A stretch of 64,000 nt of DNA, from the NCBI GenBank assembly GCA_017554305.1, contig JAFZIN010000017.1, forward strand, positions 1,919 through 65,918, in the 5' to 3' direction. The position numbers were made by a program, and so were the translations under genes. The notes under the pieces are model-generated. The model did no database searches. It worked only from the letters and a program-made list of their open reading frames with translations, and had not been told where the DNA came from. Below, piece by piece: positions 16,808-30,158 of this stretch; position 1 is the first letter of the stretch; each line of letters begins with the position of its first letter. The DNA is from Bacteroidales bacterium. Lineage in GTDB: Bacteria; Bacteroidota; Bacteroidia; Bacteroidales; UBA932.

Positions 16808-16838
16808 ACGCTCCACCGCAAAAAATAAAAATATGGCG

Positions 16839-17612
16839 TTAGTTGGAAAATATCCACAAAAGGCGGGCGGAGGTGTAACTTTGGGTGCAGGTTTGCTCGT
16901 GAGTCCAGCCGGCTTCTACATCCAGTTTAACCTTTGCTCCCGCAGCATTCAACTGAGAGATAAACTCTTGTACAGTGGAAACGCTCATAATGTTGTCTGA
17001 TGTTCCCATTACCGCATAAACCGCTGTTTTGGAAACCTTTGCAACATCACACTTAGAAGGGTTGCCGGCACAAGGCATAGCCGCAGCAAAGAGACTTGGA
17101 TATGAAGATATTAGATTCCACGTACCGGTTCCACCCATTGAGCCGCCCAAAACATACATCTTGGCCGTGTTAACATTGTGTGCCTGAGCGGTGGTTGTAA
17201 CCAGAGAGTTAAGAGCAGGTTGCATAGAGGCTGCATCCCAGAAAGCAGTTGACGGACACTGCGGAACTATTACAACCGCCTTGGTACCTGCATTTTTAAG
17301 ATAATTGGTAATTGAATTTACTCCGGCCTCCGTGAGTTGCTTCTCATTATCTGAGCCTTTGCAGGATCCACCGTGAAGATAGAGAACAAGAATATTTTGC
17401 CCCGTAACATTACTGTTTACCAGGGCCTTACGGTAAGGGAGAGTGACACCGGCAAAGGTGCCGCTCTCCTTACTGAAGGTTATTTGCTGTGGTTGTGGCT
17501 CACTCTTATCATCTTTTGGAATCTCCGTTTCAGGTGTTATGGATCCCTTTCCGCAAGAATGAAATGCAAGAAGAGCGAGAGCCACAAGCAAATATTTTAA
17601 AGTTGTCTTCAT
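16839..17612 (-). CDS. Alpha/beta-hydrolase esterase lipoprotein (PHB depolymerase/carboxylesterase-like)
   Basis: Lipobox LLAFHSC, oxyanion-like LYLHGGS and nucleophile elbow GGSMGG. Confidence 0.7.
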   Translation of the reverse strand: MKTTLKYLLVALALLAFHSCGKGSITPETEIPKDDKSEPQPQQITFSKESGTFAGVTLPYRKALVNSNVTGQNILVLYLHGGSCKGSDNEKQLTEAGVNSITNYLKNAGTKAVVIVPQCPSTAFWDAASMQPALNSLVTTTAQAHNVNTAKMYVLGGSMGGTGTWNLISSYPSLFAAAMPCAGNPSKCDVAKVSKTAVYAVMGTSDNIMSVSTVQEFISQLNAAGAKVKLDVEAGWTHEQTCTQSYTSARLLWIFSN

Positions 17613-17632
17613 ACAAATGTTTTAAATCTCTT

Positions 17633-18115
17633 TTAGTCCTGAGCCTGGCGAGGAGCCTTTGGAGGGCGAGGGCCTTTCATCCCCGGGCGGTGACCCTTGT
17701 TCTGCTTGTTTCTCAGTTTGTTCTGAATCTGAGATTCAATATTGAAGAAACGGCTTAACTGATCTGCATCCAACACTTTGGCAAGTTCATCTATGTAAGC
17801 AAGCTTAACCTCCTGAACTCTCTGCTGGCGTGCAACCTTCTCCTTCTCCATCTTTACGCTCTCCTCTTTTGTTTGCGGCTTCTGAGGTCTTGCACCAGGC
17901 TTGCCCTCACCGAACGCCTTGCGCATAGCGTCTGTGTAACTTCGGTAAACCTTCACAAATTCAGGTTTTTGCTCATCTGTAATGTTAAGACGGTAAACCA
18001 TCTCTCTAACCTTTGCCTGGAAGAATTTCTCCTTTGCATCTTCTCCCTTCTGATTCTGTGCTGTCATTGTAAATGAAACAAGCAGCATAGCAATAAAAAT
18101 GAAATACTTTTTCAT
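17633..18115 (-). CDS. Periplasmic Spy/CpxP-like helical protein (third gene of the ECF sigma operon)
   Basis: Signal peptide and charged helical repeats (DEQKPEFVKVYRSY..., LAKVLDADQLSRFFN). Sits directly downstream of the sigma and anti-sigma-like genes. Confidence 0.45.
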   Translation of the reverse strand: MKKYFIFIAMLLVSFTMTAQNQKGEDAKEKFFQAKVREMVYRLNITDEQKPEFVKVYRSYTDAMRKAFGEGKPGARPQKPQTKEESVKMEKEKVARQQRVQEVKLAYIDELAKVLDADQLSRFFNIESQIQNKLRNKQNKGHRPGMKGPRPPKAPRQAQD

Positions 18116-18131
18116 AACTACTTTTTTATGA

Positions 18132-18479
18132 TTAATATTCTGTTTCTTCTTCTGATTCTATAAGTTCGTCATCTACCTCATAATATGATAGTTGCATAAG
18201 CTCCTCTTCTGAGAGGCCGTTAAGATACTTATCTATTGGACTCTCCGCCTGAGCCATCAGTTCCCTGCTGTCTGAACCTCCCCAATTCCCAATGAATACA
18301 AAGAGCAGAATTGCTGCGGCCGCTGCTAAAGAAACGGCCCAATAATACGGAGCGTAACCCCTATTTTTCTCCTTTCCGCTCTCCACCGCCTTCTCCGTAA
18401 CTCTGGAGACAAGATTGTTCAGGTACTCCTCGCTTACCTCGTAAGGCATTTGTTTTGAGATGTTTTCAAACTTTTCCAT
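18132..18479 (-). CDS. Single-pass membrane protein, putative anti-sigma factor
   Basis: 115 aa with a central TM helix (YYWAVSLAAAAAILLFVFIG). Its start overlaps the sigma gene stop by 1 nt (18479). Confidence 0.45.
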   Translation of the reverse strand: MEKFENISKQMPYEVSEEYLNNLVSRVTEKAVESGKEKNRGYAPYYWAVSLAAAAAILLFVFIGNWGGSDSRELMAQAESPIDKYLNGLSEEELMQLSYYEVDDELIESEEETEY

Positions 18480-19036
18480 TATAAGTTCTCCTGTAAATAA
18501 CTTTTCACTTTTTCGTATGCGTAGTGATAATTCACCTTAAGGGTTCCCACACTTTTTCCGGTTGCCTGGGCAATCTCCTCATAACTAAGCTCATCATAGT
18601 AGCGCATATTGAACACCAACTGCTGCTGAGCGGGAAGAGAGAGCACTGCCTTTTGGAAAACAACCTCCGCTCTGTTTGCATCAAATGAAGTCTGAGCCTC
18701 TAATGTTGCTTTCAGACTCGGACTCAGAGACTCAATGCTGTGGAAGAAACCCGCCTTTTTTCTCAGAAGTTGGAGCGCCTCATTGCTTGCAATCCTGTAA
18801 ATCCAAGAGGTTATCTTTCCTTCTCCGCGATAGTTTGCAACAGAACGGAATATCTTTATACTTGTCTCTTGCAGAACATCTTCCGCATCCTCATGATCCA
18901 CCACAATTCTCCTGATATGCCAATAAAGAGCCTTGCCGTAACGCTGCATCAGCAGACGGAATCCCTGCTCCGTTTTCTGCGGATTGAGCAGCATCTCTTT
19001 TATCTCACTGTCTTGAATTGTCTCTGCCATTTTCAT
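18479..19036 (-). CDS. ECF-type RNA polymerase sigma-70 factor
   Basis: 185 aa. Region 2 (DAEDVLQETSIKIF..., WIYRIASNEAL) and region 4 HTH (LSYEEIAQATGKSVGTLKVNYHYA). Confidence 0.9.
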   Translation of the reverse strand: MKMAETIQDSEIKEMLLNPQKTEQGFRLLMQRYGKALYWHIRRIVVDHEDAEDVLQETSIKIFRSVANYRGEGKITSWIYRIASNEALQLLRKKAGFFHSIESLSPSLKATLEAQTSFDANRAEVVFQKAVLSLPAQQQLVFNMRYYDELSYEEIAQATGKSVGTLKVNYHYAYEKVKSYLQENL

Positions 19037-19126
19037 CTGTTTCCGGTAATAAGATGCTCAAAATGGCAAAAGGTTAAAAGCAGAATAAAAAAACTAGCGT
19101 GGCTAAACTTGTGTGATTAGATTGGT

Positions 19127-20584
19127 TTAGTTGGGGCGTTTGGGAACTCGCTTGGCAAGGCCTATGGCTCCGCTTGGGCAGACCAGACGGCAGAGGTGGC
19201 AGCCAACGCACTTCTTTCCAATGATATGCGGCTTGCGCTCAGTGTCAAACTCAATTGCCTGGTGTCCGCCGTCTCTGCAGGAGATGTAGCAGCGTCCGCA
19301 GCCAAGACACTTTTCTCTGTCTATAGTTGGCATTATAAAGGTTTCACGGTCCAGGAAATCCGGACGTACAAATGAAGGAAGTTCACTTCCAACTATTTCT
19401 GACAGATGTGCAATGTTGTTTTGCTGCATGTAGTTGGCCATACCATCTTTCAGATCATCTATGATTCTGTAGCCGTACTGCATAACTGCGGTACAGATCT
19501 GAGTGTTGGTGCAGCCCAACTGTAGGAACTCCAGAGCGTCTCTCCAGGTTTCAATACCTCCTATTCCGCTCACCTCAAATCCTTTCAGAAGAGGGTGCTT
19601 GGTAATATCCAACACGTGTCTTAGAGCTATTGGCTTAATGGCCTTGCCGGAGTAGCCGGAAGTTGTCTTCTTGCCGGAAACCGCTGAGCTGTTGCTCATT
19701 GTAATGGACTTTATGGTGTTGATTGCAGAGACTGCATCTGCACCGGAGAAGTAAGCCGCCTGAGCAGGGGTCATTATGTTGGTGATATTCGGAGTCATTT
19801 TTGGAATTACCGGAATCTTTACGGCCTGCTTAACATAGTGAGTATAAATGGTTACCAGCTCACTGTTCTGTCCTACGTCACTGCCCATTCCGGCATACTT
19901 CATCTGAGGGCAGGAGTAGTTAAGTTCAACCGCATCAACTCCGGCCGCCTCTGCCTTTTGTGCAAGTATTACCCACTCCTCTTCATTCTTTCCCATAATG
20001 GAAGCAATGACAACTTTGGTTGGATAGTTTTGCTTGAGTCTCTTAAGTATATCAAAATCAACCTCCGGCGGATTCTCTGAGAGCTGCTCCATATTACGGA
20101 AGCCCCAGAACTCTCCCTTTTCATCCTCCACGGAATCAAATCTTGGAGAGACCTCATTTATCTCCTCAAGGCAGATAGTCTTGTATACAACTCCTCCCCA
20201 TCCCATCTCAAAGGCATTTGCAACCATCTCATAATTAGTGCAAACGGCAGATGAGGCCAAGAAGAAAGGATTCTCACAGTGAATACCGCAGAAATCAATT
20301 GAGAGGTCTGCCTTAGGTTTTTCTTCCCTCTTTGCAACACGCTCTGCTACAGCCTTTATGCGGATAGGAAGATCATAGTGGATACATTTCTTTTCACAAG
20401 GTGCTTCACAGAGGCTGCAACCCTCATTTGAAAAGTACAATCCTGCACATTCCGTGTTGTCAAATTTAATTGCACGCAATCCGCGGGCCGGGTCTAATCC
20501 TTTGATACAAGCTTTAGTACAAGGGGCGTCATTGCAGAGAAGACATCTTGCCGCCTCTTCTTTGATTCTGATACTGTGTTCCAT
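19127..20584 (-). CDS. Dihydropyrimidine/dihydroorotate dehydrogenase-like flavoprotein with 4Fe-4S ferredoxin domains (PreA-like)
   Basis: N-terminal Cys clusters, a DHOD-like TIM barrel (VELNYSCPQ..., GGIETWRDALEF) and C-terminal CLGCGRCYISC / CVGCHLCRLVCP ferredoxin motifs. Start set at MEHSIRIKEE. The 20635 start would run into the divergent promoter. Confidence 0.8.
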   Translation of the reverse strand: MEHSIRIKEEAARCLLCNDAPCTKACIKGLDPARGLRAIKFDNTECAGLYFSNEGCSLCEAPCEKKCIHYDLPIRIKAVAERVAKREEKPKADLSIDFCGIHCENPFFLASSAVCTNYEMVANAFEMGWGGVVYKTICLEEINEVSPRFDSVEDEKGEFWGFRNMEQLSENPPEVDFDILKRLKQNYPTKVVIASIMGKNEEEWVILAQKAEAAGVDAVELNYSCPQMKYAGMGSDVGQNSELVTIYTHYVKQAVKIPVIPKMTPNITNIMTPAQAAYFSGADAVSAINTIKSITMSNSSAVSGKKTTSGYSGKAIKPIALRHVLDITKHPLLKGFEVSGIGGIETWRDALEFLQLGCTNTQICTAVMQYGYRIIDDLKDGMANYMQQNNIAHLSEIVGSELPSFVRPDFLDRETFIMPTIDREKCLGCGRCYISCRDGGHQAIEFDTERKPHIIGKKCVGCHLCRLVCPSGAIGLAKRVPKRPN

Positions 20585-20642
20585 TGGGTACTTATTTGTG
20601 GCTAGCGCCGTTACTTTCTGTTTGTAAAGATACAAAAATGAT

Positions 20643-20650
20643 TAACTTTG
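20643..20650 (+). promoter_or_regulatory. Bacteroidetes -7 promoter box TAacTTTG
   Basis: TAnnTTTG match 20 nt upstream of ATG 20670. It is the only such box I see before the five chained genes 20670..25664. Confidence 0.45.
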
Positions 20651-20669
20651 AAGTATAAACTAGAAAACG

Positions 20670-21734
20670 ATGTCCCATACCTATCATTTAGATCCTCACT
20701 GCCAGGCAATTCTGCAGGAATATAAAGACAACCGTCCCATTATAAAAGAGTATGAAGGAAAGGTTCTTGCCACTTTGAAACAGACATTGGAGGAGGCGGG
20801 AATACATCTGGCAAGTATAGAATCCAGGATTAAGACGGAAGATTCTCTTGCCGGAAAACTGGAACGTAAGGGCTTTAAATACAAGAGTCTGGCAGATATT
20901 ACAGACATTCTGGGAGTGCGTCTTATTACCTACTACATAGATGATGTAGACAAGGTTGCCACTGCCGTGGAGAGGATGTTTTCCGTAGATTGGGAAAACT
21001 CAATAGACAAGCGCAAAATACATGATATAGACAGCTTTGGATATGTTTCACTGCACTATGTCTGCTCTACGGAGGGCCTGCCGTACCGCTTTGAAATACA
21101 GATGCGTACCGTGCTTCAGCACGCCTGGGCAAATCTGGATCATGATACCGGTTACAAATCCGGCGTGGAGATTCCTAAAAGATATATGCGCTCTATGAGC
21201 CGCCTTGCGGGAATGCTGGAACTTATAGATGAGGAGTTTAGTAAGATACGCTCAGAAATTACAGACTATAGAAGAAAAATCCACAAGCTGGTTGCCTCCG
21301 GAAATCTGGATGAGGTTCCGCTGGACGGAGATTCTTTCCGCAGTTTTTTGGAACTGCAGCCGTTCAGGCAGTTGAACAAGAGGATTGCCTCCGTTAACCA
21401 GGCGGAGATTCAGGAGGTTTCCCTCATTCCTTACCTTACGGTATTCAAGGGACTTGAATGCAAAACTCTGGGTGATGTTCGCAACATTATAAATGATTGT
21501 TCTGAAGCTGCTTATCAGATTGCCTGCTACCAGATGGGACTTACAGATTTAGACATTGTTTCCTCTTCAATCGGCCCTCAGAATCTCTGTATAGCATACA
21601 TCCTAAAGAAGGGGTGGGGCAAGGGAGGCGTGCGCTATTTCTTTGATCTGCTTAACGGTAAGAAGGAGAGCAATGACACTGTTGCGGAGATGATTGTAGA
21701 ACAGGCAAAGGAACTTCCTTTTATGAACCAATAG
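20670..21734 (+). CDS. RelA/SpoT-domain small alarmone synthetase with ~170-aa C-terminal extension
   Basis: All synthetase motifs are intact: SRIKTEDSLAGKLERK, DITDILGVRLITYY, FGYVSLHYV, EIQMRTVLQHAWANLDHDTGYK. The C-terminal half (from ~aa 185) has no motif I recognise. Confidence 0.8.
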   Translation: MSHTYHLDPHCQAILQEYKDNRPIIKEYEGKVLATLKQTLEEAGIHLASIESRIKTEDSLAGKLERKGFKYKSLADITDILGVRLITYYIDDVDKVATAVERMFSVDWENSIDKRKIHDIDSFGYVSLHYVCSTEGLPYRFEIQMRTVLQHAWANLDHDTGYKSGVEIPKRYMRSMSRLAGMLELIDEEFSKIRSEITDYRRKIHKLVASGNLDEVPLDGDSFRSFLELQPFRQLNKRIASVNQAEIQEVSLIPYLTVFKGLECKTLGDVRNIINDCSEAAYQIACYQMGLTDLDIVSSSIGPQNLCIAYILKKGWGKGGVRYFFDLLNGKKESNDTVAEMIVEQAKELPFMNQ

Positions 21735-21737
21735 ACA

Positions 21738-22313
21738 ATGGCAAATAAACCGCTAGATACCAAACTTTTAGACAGGGCAATTCTGTTTGCCGTAAAGGCC
21801 CACTCCGGAACGGAGAGAAGAGGGAAGGGGTTCCCTTACATAGTTCATCCTATGGAGGCTATGGAGATTGTTGCCACTATGACTTCAGACCAGGAACTTC
21901 TGGCAGCGGCGGTATTGCATGATACAGTGGAAGATACGAGCGTTACAATTGAAGAGATAAAGCGGGAGTTTGGTGAGAGGATTGCAACTATCGTGGAAAA
22001 TGAAAGTGATAAAATAATAGAGAACAAAAGTGAGGAGGAGAGTTGGCACGAGCGCAAAAGAGCTGCTATTGAGAGGCTTGCAAAGGCACCGCATGATGCC
22101 AAGATAGTTGCTCTGGGAGACAAGCTGTCTAATATGAGAGCTATTTGGAGAGACTATAAAGTTAAGGGAGATGAGCTCTGGAAGATATTTCACGTTACGG
22201 AGAAGAAGGAGCACGAATGGCATTACAGAGGGCTTGCAGATTCTCTCAGAGAACTGCAGGACACGTTTGCTTTTAAGGAGTTCCAATCACTTATAAATGA
22301 GGTATTCAAATGA
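21738..22313 (+). CDS. HD-domain small alarmone hydrolase (SpoT/Mesh1-like)
   Basis: 191 aa. YIVHPMEAMEIV, AAVLHDTVEDT, ENESDKI and GDKLSNMR form the (p)ppGpp hydrolase HD pattern. Starts 3 nt after the synthetase stop. Confidence 0.8.
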   Translation: MANKPLDTKLLDRAILFAVKAHSGTERRGKGFPYIVHPMEAMEIVATMTSDQELLAAAVLHDTVEDTSVTIEEIKREFGERIATIVENESDKIIENKSEEESWHERKRAAIERLAKAPHDAKIVALGDKLSNMRAIWRDYKVKGDELWKIFHVTEKKEHEWHYRGLADSLRELQDTFAFKEFQSLINEVFK

Positions 22314-23143
22314 AACCAATAAAGATTTCCCTTTCAGATTATGTACTCACCGGCGGAGGCGCCAACGGGGAGAGTTATGACCACAAGACAGATCCGTCTG
22401 TGATGCTCAAACTCTACTTCCCCGGAAAGATTTCACAGCCTCTGGATGAGATGCAAATGGCCCGCAAGGTTTACAACCTGGGTATTCCAACTCCGGAGCC
22501 GGGAGACTATGTTGTAACTGAAGACGGACGCTACGGCATTCGCTTTAAGAAAATTATTGGCAAAAGTTCTTACTCCAGAGCCATTGGAGAGCACCCGGAG
22601 AAGATACCTCAGTATGCAAGGGAGTTTGCAGATATGTGCCTGAACCTCCATAAGATAGAGCTCAATCCTAAAGAGTTTGAGGATGTGAAAGAGCGCTACT
22701 ACCGCCTGCTGGAAGAGAACCCGTTCTTCTCTGTAGGGGAAAAGGATAAGCTGGGAAAATTCATTGCAGATGTGCCCGATGAAAACACCGCTCTGCACGG
22801 AGACCTTCAGTACAGCAATGCTATTTTTACTCCGCAAGGGGAGCGGTATTTCATAGACCTGGGAGATTTCTGCCGGGGCAACCGCCTCTTTGATATTGGA
22901 ATGGTTTACCTCTGCTGCTACCTCAGCAGTGAGGAGTTCATAGAAGAAACCTACCACATGCCAAAGCCTGTGGCAATGAAGTTCTGGGACACTTTTGCTC
23001 CATTGTACTTTGGAGAAGGCATTGATTTAAAGGAGATTGAAGAGACGGTTCTGCCATACGCCGGACTTAAGACGCTTCTTATTGAGAAGAACACTCAATG
23101 CCCAATGCCTGAATTCAGAGCAGCACTAAAATCTGTATTATGA
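22310..23143 (+). CDS. APH/choline-kinase-like phosphotransferase
   Basis: 277 aa. Catalytic loop HGDLQYSNAIF and metal-binding IDLGDF. ATGA start/stop overlap with the HD gene at 22310..22313. Confidence 0.7.
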   Translation: MKPIKISLSDYVLTGGGANGESYDHKTDPSVMLKLYFPGKISQPLDEMQMARKVYNLGIPTPEPGDYVVTEDGRYGIRFKKIIGKSSYSRAIGEHPEKIPQYAREFADMCLNLHKIELNPKEFEDVKERYYRLLEENPFFSVGEKDKLGKFIADVPDENTALHGDLQYSNAIFTPQGERYFIDLGDFCRGNRLFDIGMVYLCCYLSSEEFIEETYHMPKPVAMKFWDTFAPLYFGEGIDLKEIEETVLPYAGLKTLLIEKNTQCPMPEFRAALKSVL

Positions 23144-25332
23144 ATCTGAAAGAGCACACAAAAAAACTTGCGGAAAAAGAGGAGAAGAGACGTTCCAAGT
23201 GGACCGGCCTTCTTCTGATACTTATTGCCGTGGCTTTTCTGGAAGCCATCTCTGTAGTGCAGGCCTTTTATGCGCAAAAGGGAATTAGAAGTGAGGCTCA
23301 GACCAAGGCGGAAAGCCAGCTCAACTCAATTAAAAGCGGAATCTTAAATGTTGTAAATCAGGCAGAAAGCGCGGTTAGAAACAATGTCTGGCTGGCGCAA
23401 TGGTCTCTTATGGTCCCCGATAGTTTAGCAAACATCCCTAAACTGATTGTAAACAACAATCCAATAGTAGCCGGCTCTACAATTGCCATGGTTCCAAACT
23501 ATTACAAGAAGAGACCTCTTTACTCCCCATACACTGCAATAACAAACGGAGAGATTATTGAAACCTCCCTTGCAACAGAGGAGTATGACTATCCGTCTCA
23601 GGAGTGGTTTACAAAACCTATAGAACTGGATAGGGGCTATTGGTCTGAACCATACATAGATACGGGCGGCGGAGAGATTTTGATGACCACCTATTCCGTT
23701 CCTGTTAAAGACAACAAGGGACGCATTGCCGCAGTGCTTACCGCAGACATTGACCTTGAGTGGCTTAAGGCACTTGTAAATGATATACAGATTTACCCGG
23801 GAGCGTTCAGTACGGTTGTAAGCCGCACGGGCCGTCTTATGGTAAGCCCGGAGGACAGCCTTATAATGAACACTACCATAGACGAATACGCCTCCAAGGT
23901 AGAAGATACCGCCTCATTTAACGCTCTCAACAGGGCAATGCTCAGCAGAAAGAGCGGCAGCATTCGGGTAACTCAGAACGGAAAAAAGAACATGGTCTAT
24001 TATACCCCTATAGATAAGACCGGATGGGCCATGAACATCATAATACCGGAAAAAGAGATGTTTGCAGGCCTTAAGAAACTGAATAATCTCATTAGGCTGC
24101 TGCAACTCTTAGGCCTTCTTCTTATAGTTCTCATCTTCCGTTCCATAGCCAAAAGTCAGCTCAGGTTTAAGAGTATATCTGATAAGAAGGAGAAGATGGA
24201 AAATGAGCTCAAGATTGCAAGTGACATACAGATGTCTATGATTCCTAAGACTTTCCCGCCGTTCCCGGAAAGGGAAGACATAGATCTCTCCGCCGCCCTG
24301 GTTCCTGCAAAGGAGGTAAGCGGAGACCTGTATGACTTTTTTATCAGAGATGAAAAACTCTTTTTCTGCATAGGAGATGTTTCCGGAAAGGGAGTTCCCG
24401 CCTCTTTGCTTATGGCGGTTACAAGAAGCCTGTTCCGCAGTGTAGGTGCACATAACAACAACCCTAATGAGATTGTTTCCACTATGAACAACTCTCTCTC
24501 AGATATGAATGAGAGCAATATGTTTGTTACCTTCATCTGCTGTGTGTTAGACCTTAAGACGGGAAAGATGCAGTACAGCAACGCAGGTCACAACGCTCCT
24601 CTGCTGTTTACGGACAGGATGAGCGAACTGCCTGTAAATCCAAATCTTCCGCTGGGCGTAATACGCAACTGGGAATACTCCGTTCAGGAGGTAACTCTCC
24701 GTTATGATGATGCTATCTTCCTCTATACAGACGGTATAACGGAGGCGGAAAACATTAACCATGAACTCTTTGGAATTGAGAGGCTTAAAAAGACGCTCTC
24801 CGGAAAGAAGGCGGCTCAGGCTCATCTGAACAATGTAAAGAAGGCGGTTGCAGAATTTGTGGGAGAGGCCCCGCAAAGTGATGATCTTACCATGCTCTTC
24901 TTCCACTTTCTGAACGCTTCTGCTAAGGGCGGAGGTGAGCAAAGCATAACATTGGAAAACAATGTAAACGAGATTCGTAAACTTGAAAAGTTTATAAGTG
25001 AAGTTGCTCAGCAGATGCAACTTGCAGAGTCTGTAAAAACGAGCTTGAATCTTGCAATGGAAGAGGCTGTCTCCAATGCTATTTTGTATTCCGGTTCAAA
25101 AACCGTAGAGGTTGCCGCCCAAACAGGCAAGGATGAAATTACCTTTACCATAACAGACAGCGGCAAACCGTTTGACCCAACCGCCGTTCCGGAAGCCGAT
25201 GTAAACCAGGATGCTGCAGAGCGTCCTATAGGAGGATTAGGCATATTCCTTTACAGGAAGATTATGGACAGCGTTACCTACAAACGCCTAAATGACAAGA
25301 ATATACTCACTCTTACAAAGAGACTCAACTAA
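23140..25332 (+). CDS. Sensor protein: Cache-like periplasmic domain, SpoIIE/PP2C phosphatase and RsbW-like HATPase kinase domain
   Basis: 730 aa. Two TM helices flank a ~280-aa Cache-like region. PP2C motifs GDVSGKGVPASLLMA, TDGITEA, DDLTML. C-terminal N-box EEAVSNAILY, G1 DSGKPFD, G2 GGLGIFL. ATGA overlap with the upstream gene at 23140..23143. Confidence 0.85.
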   Translation: MNLKEHTKKLAEKEEKRRSKWTGLLLILIAVAFLEAISVVQAFYAQKGIRSEAQTKAESQLNSIKSGILNVVNQAESAVRNNVWLAQWSLMVPDSLANIPKLIVNNNPIVAGSTIAMVPNYYKKRPLYSPYTAITNGEIIETSLATEEYDYPSQEWFTKPIELDRGYWSEPYIDTGGGEILMTTYSVPVKDNKGRIAAVLTADIDLEWLKALVNDIQIYPGAFSTVVSRTGRLMVSPEDSLIMNTTIDEYASKVEDTASFNALNRAMLSRKSGSIRVTQNGKKNMVYYTPIDKTGWAMNIIIPEKEMFAGLKKLNNLIRLLQLLGLLLIVLIFRSIAKSQLRFKSISDKKEKMENELKIASDIQMSMIPKTFPPFPEREDIDLSAALVPAKEVSGDLYDFFIRDEKLFFCIGDVSGKGVPASLLMAVTRSLFRSVGAHNNNPNEIVSTMNNSLSDMNESNMFVTFICCVLDLKTGKMQYSNAGHNAPLLFTDRMSELPVNPNLPLGVIRNWEYSVQEVTLRYDDAIFLYTDGITEAENINHELFGIERLKKTLSGKKAAQAHLNNVKKAVAEFVGEAPQSDDLTMLFFHFLNASAKGGGEQSITLENNVNEIRKLEKFISEVAQQMQLAESVKTSLNLAMEEAVSNAILYSGSKTVEVAAQTGKDEITFTITDSGKPFDPTAVPEADVNQDAAERPIGGLGIFLYRKIMDSVTYKRLNDKNILTLTKRLN

Positions 25333-25361
25333 CAGATAATAAGAATAAAACAGTATAAAAA

Positions 25362-25664
25362 ATGAAAACAAAAGTCACAAAAGAAGAGGGGAAGATTACC
25401 ATAGCCTTTATAGGCCGTTTAGACACCCCTGCTGCTCAGGAAGTTAATCCTGTAATTAACGAGCTTATGGAAGAGGCAGATAAGACCATCATTATAGACT
25501 GCAAAGAGATGGCCTACATCTCCAGTTCCGGACTTAGAATATTCCTTACCCTCAGAAAGGCCGCAGAAGACAAGAAAGGCAAGGTAATCATTGAGAACAT
25601 CAATGATGAAATCCGCAGCGTCTTTATGATGACCGGCTTCCTGAATCTCTTTGAAATCAGATAA
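25362..25664 (+). CDS. STAS-domain anti-sigma-factor antagonist
   Basis: 100 aa. FIGRLDTPAAQEV...IIDCKEMAYISSSGLRIFL carries the conserved phosphorylatable Ser context. Confidence 0.9.
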   Translation: MKTKVTKEEGKITIAFIGRLDTPAAQEVNPVINELMEEADKTIIIDCKEMAYISSSGLRIFLTLRKAAEDKKGKVIIENINDEIRSVFMMTGFLNLFEIR

Positions 25665-25673
25665 CTGCTTTTC

Positions 25674-25728
25674 GGGTTGGATTTTGTCAAAAATCCCCAT
25701 GTTTTAGGGTTGGATTTTGTCAAAAATC
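25674..25728. repeat. Two copies of a 22-bp motif GGGTTGGATTTTGTCAAAAATC (25674..25695 and 25707..25728)
   Basis: Perfect 22/22 direct repeat, start-to-start spacing 33 bp. Each copy contains the imperfect palindrome GGATTTT-GTC-AAAAATC. Located between the STAS stop and the -7 box of the next gene. Confidence 0.9.
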
Positions 25729-25730
25729 AC

Positions 25731-25738
25731 TACATTTG
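25731..25738 (+). promoter_or_regulatory. Bacteroidetes -7 promoter box TAcaTTTG
   Basis: TAnnTTTG match 22 nt upstream of ATG 25760, immediately after the second 22-bp repeat. Confidence 0.45.
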
Positions 25739-25759
25739 TACTAAAAGAACAACCGAGAT

Positions 25760-27124
25760 ATGGCATACTATACTAGAAAAATAGACGAAAGGCTCCTCAC
25801 TTGGAGAAATGATCCTAAACACAAACCGCTCCTTGTTCGTGGTGCTAGACAGGTAGGGAAGTCCACTGCCGTTCGAAAGTTAGGTGAAACTTTCAGGTAC
25901 TTTGTTGAGATTAATCTTGAGAAACAGCCCAGCCTCAAGACACTGTTTCCGGAGAATATTGATGTCAAGAAGACGTGTAGTGACCTAAGTGCAACCGTGG
26001 GCATTCCTATTATACCGGGAGAAACGCTGCTATTTATTGACGAAATCCAGGATTGCATACCGGCCATTATGTCACTTCGTTATTTCAAGGAAGATTATCC
26101 TGAACTTCATGTAATTGCCGCAGGATCTTTGTTGGAATTCGCTTTGGAGGAAATACCGTCATTCGCCGTAGGAAGAATCCGCTCCTTGTATATGTATCCT
26201 TTCTCGTTTGAGGAGTTTATGAGTGCTCAGGGGTTGGATTTGCAACTGGATGCCGTCCGGAGAGCATCACCCAATCAACCGCTTTTTGAACCACTCCATA
26301 AACAACTGACCAATCAGGTTCGTAGTTTTATGCTGGTCGGCGGCATGCCTGAAGCAGTTTCCACTTGGGTGGAAACACACGACTATCTTGCATGTGCACG
26401 TGTCCACAATGACATTATGGATACATACCAGGATGACTTCTACAAGTACAAGAAGCGCATCTCACCAGAGCTTCTGACCAAAGTACTACGCTCGGTTGCC
26501 CGACAGTGCGGCACAAAATTCATCTATAATCGAGCCGATGAAGAAAGCCGCAACGAAAAGGTAAAGCAGGCCCTCCATAAACTTTCTCTTGCCGGTTTGG
26601 TGACACCTGTGACACATACCACAGCAGACGGAATACCTCTTGGCGCGCAGGTAAATGAACGAAGCATCAAATATCTCTTTCTGGATACAGGCCTTCTTCT
26701 TACTTGGCAAGGTATCCCAGCCAGCGATATCCTCTTGTCATCAGATATAGACCTCGTAAACAAAGGACTGGTAGCCGAAGTTTTAGCCGGACTTGAAATG
26801 ATAAAAAACAAAGATTGCTTCCAACGCGCTGAGATGTTTTACTGGCAGCATGAAAGTAAGAATGGCAATGCTGAAGTAGATTATCTGGGAGTCTATGGCG
26901 GCATCGTACTTCCAATAGAGGTGAAGGCAAGCACCAAGGGCACGATGCAAAGTCTCTATCTGTTCATGCACAAAAAACGCCTTCATGCCGCAGTCAGAAC
27001 ATCTCTAGAGAACTTTGGGGCCTATGACTATATTGATCCGCAACCCGAAAAAGACGATATAAGCTCCATCAGGCATATCGACGTCTACCCTTTATACGCA
27101 CTAAGCAACCTTTTTAGGAACTAG
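25760..27124 (+). CDS. AAA+ ATPase with C-terminal PD-(D/E)xK-like module (AAA_14/DUF4143-type)
   Basis: Walker A GARQVGKST, Walker B LLFIDEIQ. C-terminal NAEVDYLGVYGGIVLPIEVKAS gives a D...E-x-K nuclease-like motif. Confidence 0.8.
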   Translation: MAYYTRKIDERLLTWRNDPKHKPLLVRGARQVGKSTAVRKLGETFRYFVEINLEKQPSLKTLFPENIDVKKTCSDLSATVGIPIIPGETLLFIDEIQDCIPAIMSLRYFKEDYPELHVIAAGSLLEFALEEIPSFAVGRIRSLYMYPFSFEEFMSAQGLDLQLDAVRRASPNQPLFEPLHKQLTNQVRSFMLVGGMPEAVSTWVETHDYLACARVHNDIMDTYQDDFYKYKKRISPELLTKVLRSVARQCGTKFIYNRADEESRNEKVKQALHKLSLAGLVTPVTHTTADGIPLGAQVNERSIKYLFLDTGLLLTWQGIPASDILLSSDIDLVNKGLVAEVLAGLEMIKNKDCFQRAEMFYWQHESKNGNAEVDYLGVYGGIVLPIEVKASTKGTMQSLYLFMHKKRLHAAVRTSLENFGAYDYIDPQPEKDDISSIRHIDVYPLYALSNLFRN

Positions 27125-27305
27125 ATACCTAAAATATTCCAGTGTTCTCTATTTCAAATCTATTTGCAAGATAGGTTAATAATGAACCCATTAATTACTT
27201 AATAATGTTTGAATCCTAATTTATTTTAACTACATTCGTATTGTAATACACCGCATTATGGCACCTCAAAGTCATATAACTGCATCATCTTTTATTCCGT
27301 CTAAT

Positions 27306-27314
27306 GGGGGGGGG
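27306..27314. repeat. G9 homopolymer
   Basis: ctaatGGGGGGGGGtaatc. Nine consecutive G in an otherwise AT-rich 304-nt intergenic region, 115 nt upstream of ATG 27429. Confidence 0.95.
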
Positions 27315-27353
27315 TAATCAACTAATAGTTAATAACTTACATAAATATTCAAC

Positions 27354-27388
27354 AGCACGTTGCGCATGTAAGCATCGTGCTTTTTTTT
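27354..27388 (+). terminator. Rho-independent terminator-like hairpin plus T8 in an intergenic leader
   Basis: agcacg-t-tgc[gcatgtaa]gca-t-cgtgct followed by tttttttt. It lies 230 nt after the ATPase stop and 41 nt before ATG 27429. Confidence 0.65.
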
Positions 27389-27428
27389 ATATGAGCCTGT
27401 CAAATTTTAAAAGCAAATAACTCATACA

Positions 27429-30158
27429 ATGAAAAAACAAATATTTCTTTTATGTCTAATTTCCTCTGTTATAATCACCTTAATTGGGTGCGTAAAAGAG
27501 GATGAGACTCCAATAGATAAAACAGGTCTTCTTGAAGAGGAAGATTTGCATGAAGTAGTTTTCCACGCTGGTTGGGCTCAAGAGACAAAAACAGTTCTTA
27601 AGGAGGATGGAAGTGTCTGGTGGACTCCGGGAGATTCAATAGCCTTATTTATGGTAGGCGGATCAGGGATAAAAAAGTATTGTTTAAAAGCGGATTGTAA
27701 AGAGCCTGCGCAAACTACAAACTTCATTGGTAAAATTGGTGAAGAGAGTGGCACCTATTATGCTATCTACCCTTACAATAATGCTGGAGAATGGTTATCT
27801 CGCTTCACCATTCCTATGGTCCAATATGCAAAAGCAGGAGGTTTTGCTCCTGGTCAATTTGTCAGTTTTACAAGGTCTGATAATAAAGACCTTACTTTCT
27901 ACAATGTGTGTGCTGGCATCAAGTTTTCAGTAGCTCACGAAGGCATTTCAAAAGTCGTCTTCAAAAGCAGACAAAATAGTTATCCTATTATTACGGGAGA
28001 AATGGGAATCCCGTTCTACACTCAGTTCCCTGATACTCCGGATATAGTCCCGGTCTTTAACTCTGATGACCCAAGTGTATCGGAATCCGATGTGTCAAAT
28101 ACGTTGACGGTGTATCCTGCAGAGGGTAAATATTTTATTCCCGGAGAGTATTACTATGCCTCTATAAGACCTGGTTACACGTCACTTGTTGTATCGTTTT
28201 ATACGGATGAACAAGTGGCAACGACCTCGCTTCCAGGCGGGATTATTGAAAGATCCAAAATTGCCGTCCTTCAAGAAAAAGACAAGGACCTCACTTTTGA
28301 GCAGGATTATAACTATTCTTATTCATTATTAGGTCCGGATATTCTTCCTGAAGGAATTGAGAAAACCGCTATCCGAGATGTTATCTTCCACACATCGAGT
28401 GATGTGACAACCTCAACAGTAGTTCCAAGTTCTATCCCATCTGTTGATGGTCGCATCTGGCAAGATTATATCCCTGTTTATTTTGAATTGAAAGGTACAA
28501 CAGCACACTACTATTCCAAGGCCGAGCGATATCTGATGACGGGACCGGAATGTATCTCATTCCAGGGATGGAGGGAACTTCGCTCTGTTGATCTTTCTAT
28601 GTTTTGTACTAATCAAGTTACAGATTTCTCGTACATGTTCAATAGTTGTGTCAAACTGGAAAGTGTCAATTTATCAAGTTTTAATACAAGTAGTGCACAG
28701 CGAATGACCGGTATGTTTAGTGATTGTAAAAGCCTTAAGGGTTTAGATCTACGTAGTTTCTCTTCAAGAAGCTTAGTTGGTTTTGAACCGGCAGCACAAT
28801 TATTCGCTCAATGTTATGATTTGGTTAAATTGGACTTGGGGAACTTTGATCTTTCTAATTGCGATCATTTTGGTGCGATGATATGGTTTGCTAAGTTCAG
28901 CAAGAATTGTGCGATTCGTTGTAATGCGGCAACGCGTTTAAAATTAAGCGATTCTGATTCTCAACTTGGATCAAGTGCTGATTATATCACATGGGTGCTT
29001 CCAGAAGAAGATATTCCAGATTTAGAGCCAATTGTAGATCCTACTTTATACACCAGTACGGACTATAGTAAAGACAAAACTGTTAGAATCCTTCATCAAG
29101 CTACTAAAGGGAATGGCGTTGATATTGTTCTTTTGGGCGATGGCTATTCTGACAGGATGATTGCAGATGGTACTTATGATGCAGATATGGAATTGGCTAT
29201 GAATGCCATACTTAAAGATGAACCATACGCCTCATTTAAGGACTACATCAATGTGTATACGGTATATGCAGTTTCCAAGAATGAAATTCCATTTAGTACT
29301 CGTACTGCATTTGATGTATCAATTAATCAGTGGGACCCCGTAGCCGGAATTATTTGTAGTAGGGATGAGTATGAGGTTTACCGATATGCATCTATTGCGT
29401 TTCCAAATAAAGACTTGGAAGACATAGCCATGATTATCATTATCAATCAAGCAGAAGGAGATGGAGATTCGTTTACAGACGGCGTGGCCGTCTCTGAAGG
29501 GTGGTGGAGTAATGATGATTACTTAGATTACGCCGCTCATGCCAAATCTATTGGAATGATTAATAGGAGAGACCGTTCTCAGACAAAAACTTTTTCAGAA
29601 ATAGTTGCACATGAATTTGGCCATGTTTTCGCAAAACTAGGAGATGAATACGTCATGTTTAACGGTAGTCAAATACCTGATTGGGAGAGAAACGCTATTG
29701 TTGATGCTGCAATACATGTTGGTTGGTGGAGTAATATTGATGTCACAAATGATCCTCAAAAGATAAAATGGAAAAGATTTCTGGAAGATGAACGATATTC
29801 AGGGACTGGTATTGGCATATTTGCAGGAGGCTATACATACTCAGATGGCGTATGGCATCCATCTGAAAACAGTATTATGAGATTCAACACCGGAGGGTTT
29901 AATGCCCCGTCTAGAGAGGTGATTTATAAAAGAATACACAAGCTTGCGTTAGGTAAAGATTGGCAATATGACTACGAAACATTCGTAGAATATGACCAAA
30001 AGAACATTGAAGCGGAAAAAGCTGCTCAAACAGCACAAGTTTCACAAAGCACTGCGAAAATCCCATATCCGGCAAGGGTTAATAGGAAGCATCTCTTTAA
30101 GATGGAGGAGTCCACCACTGCAGACGGAAAAAAGAAGGTAACCGTCATAATGAATTAA
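27429..30158 (+). CDS. Chimeric surface lipoprotein: N-terminal Ig/fimbrillin-like region, DUF285/BspA-type leucine-rich repeats, C-terminal M64 (IgA-protease-like) zinc metallopeptidase
   Basis: Lipobox ITLIGC. Repeated F..C..L..(V/L)(N/D)LSSF units (MFNSCVKLESVNLSSFNTSS..MFSDCKSLKGLDLRSFSS..). C-terminal VLLGDGYS...HEFGHVFAKLGDEY matches the M64 pattern. Confidence 0.75.
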   Translation: MKKQIFLLCLISSVIITLIGCVKEDETPIDKTGLLEEEDLHEVVFHAGWAQETKTVLKEDGSVWWTPGDSIALFMVGGSGIKKYCLKADCKEPAQTTNFIGKIGEESGTYYAIYPYNNAGEWLSRFTIPMVQYAKAGGFAPGQFVSFTRSDNKDLTFYNVCAGIKFSVAHEGISKVVFKSRQNSYPIITGEMGIPFYTQFPDTPDIVPVFNSDDPSVSESDVSNTLTVYPAEGKYFIPGEYYYASIRPGYTSLVVSFYTDEQVATTSLPGGIIERSKIAVLQEKDKDLTFEQDYNYSYSLLGPDILPEGIEKTAIRDVIFHTSSDVTTSTVVPSSIPSVDGRIWQDYIPVYFELKGTTAHYYSKAERYLMTGPECISFQGWRELRSVDLSMFCTNQVTDFSYMFNSCVKLESVNLSSFNTSSAQRMTGMFSDCKSLKGLDLRSFSSRSLVGFEPAAQLFAQCYDLVKLDLGNFDLSNCDHFGAMIWFAKFSKNCAIRCNAATRLKLSDSDSQLGSSADYITWVLPEEDIPDLEPIVDPTLYTSTDYSKDKTVRILHQATKGNGVDIVLLGDGYSDRMIADGTYDADMELAMNAILKDEPYASFKDYINVYTVYAVSKNEIPFSTRTAFDVSINQWDPVAGIICSRDEYEVYRYASIAFPNKDLEDIAMIIIINQAEGDGDSFTDGVAVSEGWWSNDDYLDYAAHAKSIGMINRRDRSQTKTFSEIVAHEFGHVFAKLGDEYVMFNGSQIPDWERNAIVDAAIHVGWWSNIDVTNDPQKIKWKRFLEDERYSGTGIGIFAGGYTYSDGVWHPSENSIMRFNTGGFNAPSREVIYKRIHKLALGKDWQYDYETFVEYDQKNIEAEKAAQTAQVSQSTAKIPYPARVNRKHLFKMEESTTADGKKKVTVIMN

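Follow-up and report, generated by a model that had tools for sequence, protein, structure and literature searches.

A partner-switching module that travels with a small alarmone synthetase in Bacteroidales and Clostridia-like bacteria

A run of five plus-strand genes in a 64,000-nucleotide stretch of rumen Bacteroidales DNA (contig JAFZIN010000017.1; "the window" below means this whole stretch) brings together the enzymes of a nucleotide messenger and the parts of a partner switch. The genes encode a small alarmone synthetase (SAS; 20670-21734, 354 aa in the list of open reading frames), a small alarmone hydrolase (SAH; 21738-22313, 191 aa), an APH-like kinase (22310-23143, 277 aa), a membrane sensor protein in which a PP2C phosphatase is fused to an RsbW-like kinase (the fusion; 23140-25332, 730 aa) and a STAS protein (25362-25664, 100 aa). 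Comparison with related loci argues strongly that the partner switch makes up one functional unit with the alarmone enzymes, without a sigma factor, since the genes travel together over hundreds of species, through repeated changes of order and in a second phylum. We lean, by a small measure, towards the view that this operon uses a phosphorylation-dependent partner switch to control its dedicated alarmone synthetase and not a sigma factor. The broader and more tentative proposal, to which we give slightly less than even chances, is that the operon belongs to a cross-phylum family of ligand-gated alarmone switches in which a phospho-controlled STAS protein binds the C-terminal domain of the SAS directly and thereby toggles the enzyme.

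Gene content and order of the cluster in relatives

The cluster was followed in public genomes by scanning one genome per species for relatives of the SAS and retaining the 80 best loci (67-99% identity); gene presence was counted in the 67 of these loci with enough flanking DNA, which we call adequate. SAS relatives occur in at least 555 species genomes, and the metagenome stretches that carry one are about as numerous. Closest among public sequences is a metagenome-assembled Bacteroidales genome from water-buffalo rumen (contig JAFZUX010000013.1, L001), whose SAS is 99% identical and whose DNA, at ~95% identity, is collinear with the window from 19128 to exactly the stop codon of the STAS gene at 25664. 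All five genes are present in 59 of the 67 adequate loci and, taken singly, STAS is found in 64, the fusion in 63, the SAH in 64 and the APH-like kinase in 63. The genes of the related clusters share one strand, the gaps between them are nearly always shorter than 50 nt, and at least eight gene orders were counted, examples being SAS-SAH-APH-fusion-STAS, fusion-antiporter-STAS-SAS-SAH-APH, SAS-fusion-antiporter-STAS-SAH-APH and SAS-SAH-fusion-STAS-APH. The alarmone module (SAS-SAH-APH) and the switch module (fusion-(antiporter)-STAS) have thus been reshuffled with respect to each other yet remain together, and the genes that flank them vary. Persistence through rearrangement is a classical signature of functional coupling. 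An earlier note on this DNA had named a lack of synteny of the five genes in related genomes as grounds for refutation, and its idea survives this check, across these orders and in a second phylum. No mobile-element genes were seen around the cluster in the contexts examined.

The linkage extends to more distant relatives of the SAS, which, searched with its C-terminal extension included, fall into 1056 clusters at 50% identity (E up to 1e-30). In a Clostridia-like clade, whose SAS proteins are 35-42% identical to that of the window, STAS and an HD_4 hydrolase adjoin the SAS in five of five contexts, and four of the five hold a SpoIIE-HATPase_c_2 protein with a 5TM-5TMR_LYT sensor or none; all four adequate loci of this clade in a metagenome sample have STAS and SAH. 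The APH-like kinase is absent from the clade. A Bacteroidales subclade (L081 type, SAS 52% identical) has its genes arranged as fusion, NMT1, fusion, CitMHS/TrkA_C transporter, STAS, STAS, SAS and GerE-type regulator; STAS is present twice in L081-L083, neither SAH nor APH-like kinase is found, and seven metagenome loci show the same pattern. Because this subclade keeps fusion, STAS and SAS without SAH or APH-like kinase, the SAS is the constant partner of the switch. The earlier note had suggested that the output is either the alarmone enzymes or the APH-like kinase. Its first alternative fits the constant companionship of the SAS with STAS and the fusion, and its second fares poorly, since the APH-like kinase is missing from whole subclades and is on that account unlikely to be the main output. 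Judged by gene content, the conserved core is SAS, STAS and the PP2C/kinase protein; the SAH is nearly always present but accessory, like the RCK_C antiporter described below and the APH-like kinase, the latter specific to Bacteroidales.

Other distant relatives of the SAS stand alone, as seen in four contexts that we read directly (Bacillus mycoides, Flavobacterium, an Oxalobacteraceae strain and a phage-like contig). The B. mycoides gene (L098) lies in a restriction-modification/integrase/KAP-NTPase island, another stand-alone relative (L101) adjoins DUF1508 and HTH/Peptidase_M78 genes, and 32 more (L102-L133), all at 49% identity or less, are on viral contigs; the C-terminal region is alignable in part of these stand-alone proteins. 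No STAS or PP2C match was found in the four contexts or at the 32 viral-contig loci, and none of seven adequate metagenome loci of other clades has STAS or SAH. The link between SAS and switch is therefore specific to certain clades and not a property of the domain, and the wider SAS family may include defence or toxin members. A crude neighbour-joining tree places the linked genes in two clades (133 leaves, 110 linked and 4 alone; 23 leaves, 17 linked and none alone) and the stand-alone genes outside them; this is weak, exploratory evidence, and its deep branches are not long enough to distinguish a single origin of the linkage from two.

Several further genes join the cluster in relatives. 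An NMT1/THI5-like binding protein gene directly precedes the fusion gene at 11 loci, and a cytidylate-kinase-like gene (Cytidylate_kin2, E 1.8e-47) stands beside the SAS gene at 9, either directly before it or between SAS and SAH (L005-L010, 9354-9995, with 9072-9713 in L007; L033, 3312-3968). The latter loci include the clade nearest to the window. This gene gives the cluster a second nucleotide-related kinase. The window itself has no antiporter, NMT1/THI5-like or cytidylate-kinase-like gene. In some clusters (L058, 6704-9192; L059, 14984-17435; L083, 832-6536) there is another fusion gene, placed in tandem or on the opposite strand and sometimes joined by another STAS gene. This suggests that several sensors feed one synthetase. 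At one Clostridia-like locus (L087, 10073-11956 and 14312-15742) the hydrolase is fused to Amidohydro_1, a PAS + Guanylate_cyc gene directly follows STAS, and a cNMP-binding protein is encoded further downstream; the PAS + Guanylate_cyc protein would be a second nucleotide messenger enzyme in one gene run. In two Clostridia-like contexts, L087 (8014-8976) and L090 (932-1888), the SAS gene is preceded by a gene for a ~320-aa protein with a hydrophobic C-terminal tail; the two copies are 48% identical and have no Pfam match.

The five proteins and their diagnostic residues

The domain calls that the earlier note had made for all five proteins were confirmed by Pfam and NCBIfam profile searches, and the diagnostic catalytic and phospho-acceptor residues are essentially invariant in each of them (59-81 orthologues). 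The SAS matches RelA_SpoT (PF04607) over residues 52-165 with 71.8 bits against a cut-off of 27 (E 7e-20) and Bacillus subtilis YjbM/RelQ (5ded) over residues 3-201 (phmmer E 4.8e-14). Its AlphaFold2 (AF2) model, with a pLDDT of 90.9, retrieved 5ded from the Protein Data Bank (PDB) with Foldseek (E 4e-10), and target-normalised TM-scores were 0.73-0.82 for the top RelQ/RelP matches. All 81 orthologues compared share R53, K55, S59, D79, G82, R84, Y125, S127, H129, E142 and Q144 and keep the RxKxxxS, DxxDxxGxR, YxSxH and ExQxRT motifs. On sequence and predicted fold, the catalytic domain (about residues 1-204) is RelQ/RelP-like (5ded, 6fgk, 6ewz), with all pyrophosphokinase motifs kept. The protein scores 61 bits on the YjbM/RelQ equivalog model, the cut-off of which is 320. 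A search of PDB sequences at E up to 1 returned only RelQ/RelP chains and no toxic SAS (toxSAS) or Tas1 chain, and the PADLOC candidate model PDC-S33 matches the catalytic core only (E 5.8e-16).

Unlike RelQ and RelP, the SAS has 150 extra C-terminal residues, which form a domain without a solved relative, and its gene is part of a signalling operon. The activity of RelQ and RelP depends on transcription, pppGpp, RNA or metal ions, and neither is known to have a dedicated protein switch. At 354 aa the SAS exceeds the size of a single-domain SAS (about 200-250 aa), and its C-terminal part (residues 205-354; 21282-21731, plus strand) is modelled as a separate, confidently folded and mostly helical domain, with a pLDDT of 94.5 and a pTM of 0.89 when modelled alone. 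The domain is retained in relatives at 31-48% identity. It has no match in Pfam or NCBIfam, and Foldseek found nothing significant among PDB structures (best E 3.0, TM <0.33) or BFVD viral models (best E 2.1), and the idea that it mimics a sigma factor or another known fold was rejected on these searches. We consider it a candidate for a family-specific regulatory or docking domain.

The SAH matches HD_4 (PF13328; 75.3 bits, E 5.8e-21), and its best PDB sequence matches are the small HD-domain hydrolase chains 7qoe, 7qoc and 4yf1 (phmmer E 4e-21 to 2e-19). Residues R27-R28, H37, H61-D62, E65-D66, D128 and N132 are invariant in 76 of 76 orthologues; the protein thus has the make-up of a small alarmone hydrolase, consisting of an HD_4 domain by itself in which the His-Asp metal site, the ED motif and the DxxxN motif are all kept. 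The APH-like kinase matches PF01636 (51.6 bits, E 1.4e-13) and narrowly misses TIGR02172, with 218.3 bits over the full model length and a cut-off of 228.2. K34, H163, D165, N170, D183 and D186 are invariant in 74 of 74 orthologues. This protein appears to be a close relative of the TIGR02172 family and probably an accessory small-molecule kinase.

The fusion combines an MCP-like_PDC_1/dCache_1 domain with SpoIIE (PF07228, 169 bits) and HATPase_c_2 (PF13581, 86 bits). It is laid out as a first transmembrane segment (residues 19-46), a dCache domain (about 47-312), a second transmembrane segment (313-341), the PP2C/SpoIIE domain (404-589) and the RsbW-like HATPase_c_2 domain (607-727); because the two hydrophobic segments bracket the Cache domain, it should face the periplasm. 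The PP2C aspartates D396, D399, D413, D581 and D582 are present in 59 of 59 orthologues and D531 in 58 of 59, as are the kinase residues N646, D673, G675 and G698-G701 of the N, G1 and G2 boxes (58 of 59). The HATPase domain scores far below the cut-offs of the RsbW and SpoIIAB equivalog models and by its profile matches is a member of that family, not an orthologue of either. The sensor part diverges fastest (mean distance 0.53 vs 0.41 for the catalytic part) and in other clades is replaced by Cache+HAMP, 5TM-5TMR_LYT or nothing; the Cache sensor, to judge from these swaps, is exchangeable.

The STAS protein is above the cut-offs of both PF01740 (58 bits, E 8.5e-16) and TIGR00377 (67.5 bits). 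Its S55 (codon 25524-25526) aligns with the first Ser of the D-S-T/S-G-L motif of RsbV (6m36) and SpoIIAA (1th8), which we take to be their phosphorylated Ser, and the stretch YISSSGLR, which includes Ser55, is invariant in 60 of 60 orthologues. Ser55 is the predicted phospho-acceptor. The cluster thus holds a single-domain STAS protein with the Ser motif, a GHKL serine kinase and the PP2C aspartates of a partner switch; a sigma factor to be held by the kinase and freed by STAS was not found within the conserved cluster at the loci and contexts searched.

Proposed mechanism and competing explanations

In the mechanism that we propose, an extracytoplasmic ligand would be sensed by the periplasmic dCache domain of the fusion and would set the balance between its PP2C phosphatase and its RsbW-like serine kinase, both of which would act on Ser55 of STAS. 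One phospho-form of STAS, by analogy the unphosphorylated one, would bind the SAS, most likely through the C-terminal helical domain or the long helix that precedes it, and this binding would switch the transfer of pyrophosphate from ATP to a purine nucleotide on or off. The HD hydrolase would degrade the product, giving the output the form of a pulse and sparing the cell from poisoning itself. The APH-like kinase and, in relatives, the cytidylate-kinase-like protein and the RCK_C antiporter may be accessory or downstream parts. What we infer in this model is that STAS is phosphorylated and touches the SAS, which way the signal runs and which nucleotide is made.

The model has partial precedents. 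In the SiaABCD system of Pseudomonas aeruginosa, unphosphorylated SiaC binds and activates the diguanylate cyclase SiaD; as in the cluster described here, one operon without a sigma factor encodes a PP2C phosphatase with a sensor, a kinase, a small phospho-partner and a nucleotide second-messenger synthase (PMC8457831, PMC7647112). The likeness is in wiring only: SiaABCD uses a GGDEF cyclase and cyclic di-GMP (c-di-GMP), whereas the present cluster has a RelA/SpoT-type synthetase with its own hydrolase and no GGDEF gene, its phosphatase and kinase are fused, and its small partner matches Pfam STAS. The fusion scores 54.6 bits on the SiaA model, against a cut-off of 700, and is for this reason not a SiaA orthologue. 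In the HptB-HsbR-HsbA-HsbD pathway of Pseudomonas, the fused PP2C-HATPase protein HsbR acts on the STAS protein HsbA, which works with the cyclase HsbD (PMC5085249), so that a fused phosphatase and kinase acts on a STAS protein tied to a second-messenger synthase, as proposed here. HsbR, however, takes its input through a receiver domain and phosphorelay, not a periplasmic Cache domain, and the Hsb outputs are c-di-GMP, FlgM and RpoS, with no alarmone enzyme (PMC5085249, PMC6482189). The RsbU/RsbV/RsbW-sigma B and SpoIIE/SpoIIAA/SpoIIAB-sigma F modules of Bacillus have the same three domain families and the same STAS phospho-Ser motif; they differ from the present cluster in that here no sigma factor is in the conserved cluster, the kinase and phosphatase are one membrane protein, and an alarmone synthetase is the neighbour.

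Several observations weigh against the proposed control of the SAS by the switch. Three adequate Bacteroidales genome loci (L030, L038 and L065) and one metagenome locus (L212) have an SAS relative with neither fusion nor STAS nearby, and at one Clostridia-like locus STAS is present with no fusion gene in the DNA within reach. Linkage of genes carries no direction: the target of STAS could be the antiporter, the SAH or the kinase, or the switch could itself respond to the alarmone. The product of the SAS may be ppGpp, pGpp, ppApp or a pyrophosphorylated RNA end. HsbR takes part in post-translational control of RpoS (PMC6482189), and a sigma factor encoded elsewhere might likewise be the target here. 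On the other side, a mirror-tree comparison fits the model: STAS distances correlate best with those of the SAS (r 0.78, partial 0.55), ahead of 0.71 (partial 0.41) for the APH-like kinase, 0.68 (0.21) for the catalytic part of the fusion and 0.50 (0.07) for the SAH. The comparison is exploratory and deserves little weight; its pairs are not independent, and exchange of the fusion between clades is by itself enough to lower the value for that protein.

One competing explanation is that the SAS is a regulated, toxSAS-like toxin that overproduces ppApp or ppGpp or pyrophosphorylates tRNA 3' ends, that the SAH is its type IV antitoxin, as in FaRel-ATfaRel, and that the partner switch times a growth brake, possibly in defence or dormancy. 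We regard this variant of our model as unlikely. It would fit the stand-alone relatives in the B. mycoides island, beside the DUF1508 and HTH/Peptidase_M78 genes and on the 32 viral contigs, as well as the PDC-S33 match in the catalytic core. The layout of an SAS gene followed by an SAH gene, whose product is predicted to degrade that of the SAS, also mirrors FaRel-ATfaRel (PMC7229694). Most loci show this SAS-SAH adjacency, but they do not form the conserved two- or three-gene locus, often phage-borne or mobile, that is typical of toxSAS. Instead, the SAS is part of a chromosomal signalling cluster of five to seven genes with a periplasmic sensor and transporters and with no mobile-element genes seen. 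In addition, no relative on a viral contig exceeds the identity given above, one subclade lacks the SAH, which would be unexpected for a lethal toxin, and the PDB sequence matches are to RelQ/RelP and not to toxSAS.

About equally improbable, in our judgement, is a reversed or branched wiring in which the alarmone serves as input or signals in parallel, while STAS, or a nucleotide acting through RCK_C, gates a cation/proton antiporter. A Na_H_Exchanger + TrkA_C (RCK_C) antiporter of ~500 aa lies inside the cluster in 34 of the 67 adequate loci, always beside the fusion or STAS and in three different positions (e.g. L011, 6668-8170; L034, 12482-13957), and in the L081-type loci the CitMHS + TrkA_C transporter takes that place. 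Cation transporters can bind c-di-AMP through their RCK_C domains, guanine nucleotides are ligands of some STAS domains, and the STAS domain is native to SulP anion transporters. Against this wiring, the antiporter is absent from the window, from its nearest clade (L001-L010 and L064) and from the Clostridia-like loci, whereas the SAS is constant; the cluster of the window would have to have lost its transporter or to use one encoded elsewhere.

Less probable still is a classical anti-sigma arrangement, in which a sigma factor encoded elsewhere is bound by the HATPase_c_2 domain and set free by unphosphorylated STAS, and in which SAS, SAH and kinase are co-expressed cargo or members of the regulon. 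The PP2C domain, RsbW-like kinase and STAS protein do make up a canonical sigma-B/sigma-F module, and the HsbR precedent and a nearby sigma factor gene point the same way. The latter encodes an extracytoplasmic function (ECF) sigma factor (18479-19036, minus strand) and lies 1.6 kb upstream of the operon, beyond a divergent PreA-like gene; its stop is overlapped by a 115-aa gene (18132-18479) that is its putative anti-sigma. The ECF sigma gene accompanies the cluster only in L001, where it is inverted. It was rejected as the target of the switch, being inverted in this nearest genome and not conserved with the cluster, and it is of another kind than the sigma factors known to be held by RsbW-type kinases. 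No sigma factor gene was found in the conserved cluster, either by tblastn with the ECF sigma of the window at the 80 genome loci or among the Pfam labels of the contexts read in two phyla. The earlier note had stated that no sigma factor is in or next to the operon, which holds in so far as none is conserved with the cluster and needs correction for the ECF sigma and its putative anti-sigma 1.6 kb upstream. Furthermore, cargo status would leave the linkage of the SAS through eight gene orders and the sensor swaps unexplained, and Bacteroidota are not known to have sigma-B-, sigma-F- or RpoS-type sigma factors. Finally, the idea that the cluster itself is phage-borne or belongs to a defence island was rejected, as the viral scan gave only the distant stand-alone relatives and PADLOC returned nothing for the other four proteins.

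We thus favour control of the SAS by the partner switch. For small alarmone synthetases, transcription or small ligands are the controls mostly considered, and partner switches without a sigma factor are mostly orphan modules. The purpose of extra SAS and SAH genes has been described as an open question (PMC7229694), and the cluster offers a concrete and widespread answer to both puzzles. The 2011 survey of RelA/SpoT homologues gives no SAS for Bacteroidia, and the 2020 toxSAS paper chose only two- and three-gene loci for study and does not mention Bacteroidetes in its main text. The earlier note knew of no described system with this wiring. Full-text literature searches, of incomplete coverage, agree with it: those that combined alarmone or SAS with partner-switching, STAS, PP2C or anti-sigma antagonist and one that combined partner-switching with Bacteroides, SpoIIE and STAS returned no paper on the arrangement, and the novelty probably lies in a partner switch with a new class of output. 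If the proposal is correct, this would be the first partner switch whose output is an alarmone synthetase, small alarmone synthetases would have their first dedicated protein switch, and alarmones would join the short list of second messengers under partner-switch control, of which c-di-GMP is the known case. Gut and rumen anaerobes could then answer extracellular cues with a (p)ppGpp- or (p)ppApp-type pulse that does not depend on starvation sensed at the ribosome and is possibly coupled to cation/proton transport. The wiring would also point to signals beyond starvation that govern how fast the dominant Bacteroidales and Clostridia of rumen and gut grow. A function would also be assigned to the conserved 150-residue domain of the SAS.

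Operon signals and flanking DNA

Re-reading of the sequence reproduced exactly the five open reading frames and the spacing given in the earlier note. The SAS and SAH genes are separated by 3 nt (TAG-aca-ATG), the SAH and APH-like kinase genes overlap by ATGA at 22310-22313, as do the kinase and fusion genes at 23140-23143, and 29 nt lie between the fusion and STAS genes. A Bacteroidetes-type -7 promoter box, TAACTTTG (20643-20650, plus strand), was found by reading and motif match 19 nt before the SAS start codon and is probably the promoter of the operon; the arrangement of the five genes suggests that they are co-transcribed as one unit. The earlier note had called this box single. It is indeed present before the SAS gene, but it is not the sole plus-strand copy, as a further TAnnTTTG, TATGTTTG, lies within the fusion gene at 24519. 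Another, TACATTTG at 25731 (plus strand), precedes the gene after the operon. The window as a whole shows no more than a mild excess of the motif (67 found vs 48.4 expected), but its position is conserved: 56 of 79 related loci have a copy in the 120 nt before their first cluster gene. No riboswitch or other known RNA was found with Rfam at gathering thresholds over 17000-28000, and no intrinsic terminator was found on the plus strand after the STAS gene.

The neighbours of the cluster in the window, namely the PreA-like gene, the ECF sigma gene and an AAA_14 ATPase gene, are not conserved among related loci. Upstream, a segment with the ECF sigma, putative anti-sigma and a 160-aa gene (17632-19102) is inverted with respect to L001 and about 96% identical over its length; no convincing long inverted repeats flank it. 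Next to it, a 257-aa open reading frame (16839-17612, minus strand) lies in a stretch (16809-17631) that is missing from L001, where ~390 bp separate the matches on either side. Downstream of the operon, the gene at 25760-27124 encodes an AAA_14/DUF4143 ATPase that matches the PADLOC candidate defence family PDC-S01 (E 1.5e-132); it looks like a strain-specific insertion, since it was not found in L001 and the STAS stop codon is exactly where the collinearity breaks off. The DNA that separates the STAS gene from the TACATTTG box contains a perfect direct repeat of 21 nt, GGTTGGATTTTGTCAAAAATC, with copies at 25675-25695 and 25708-25728, 33 nt apart, no further copies in the window and 0.01 expected by chance. 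This repeat could be an operator or the scar of an insertion.

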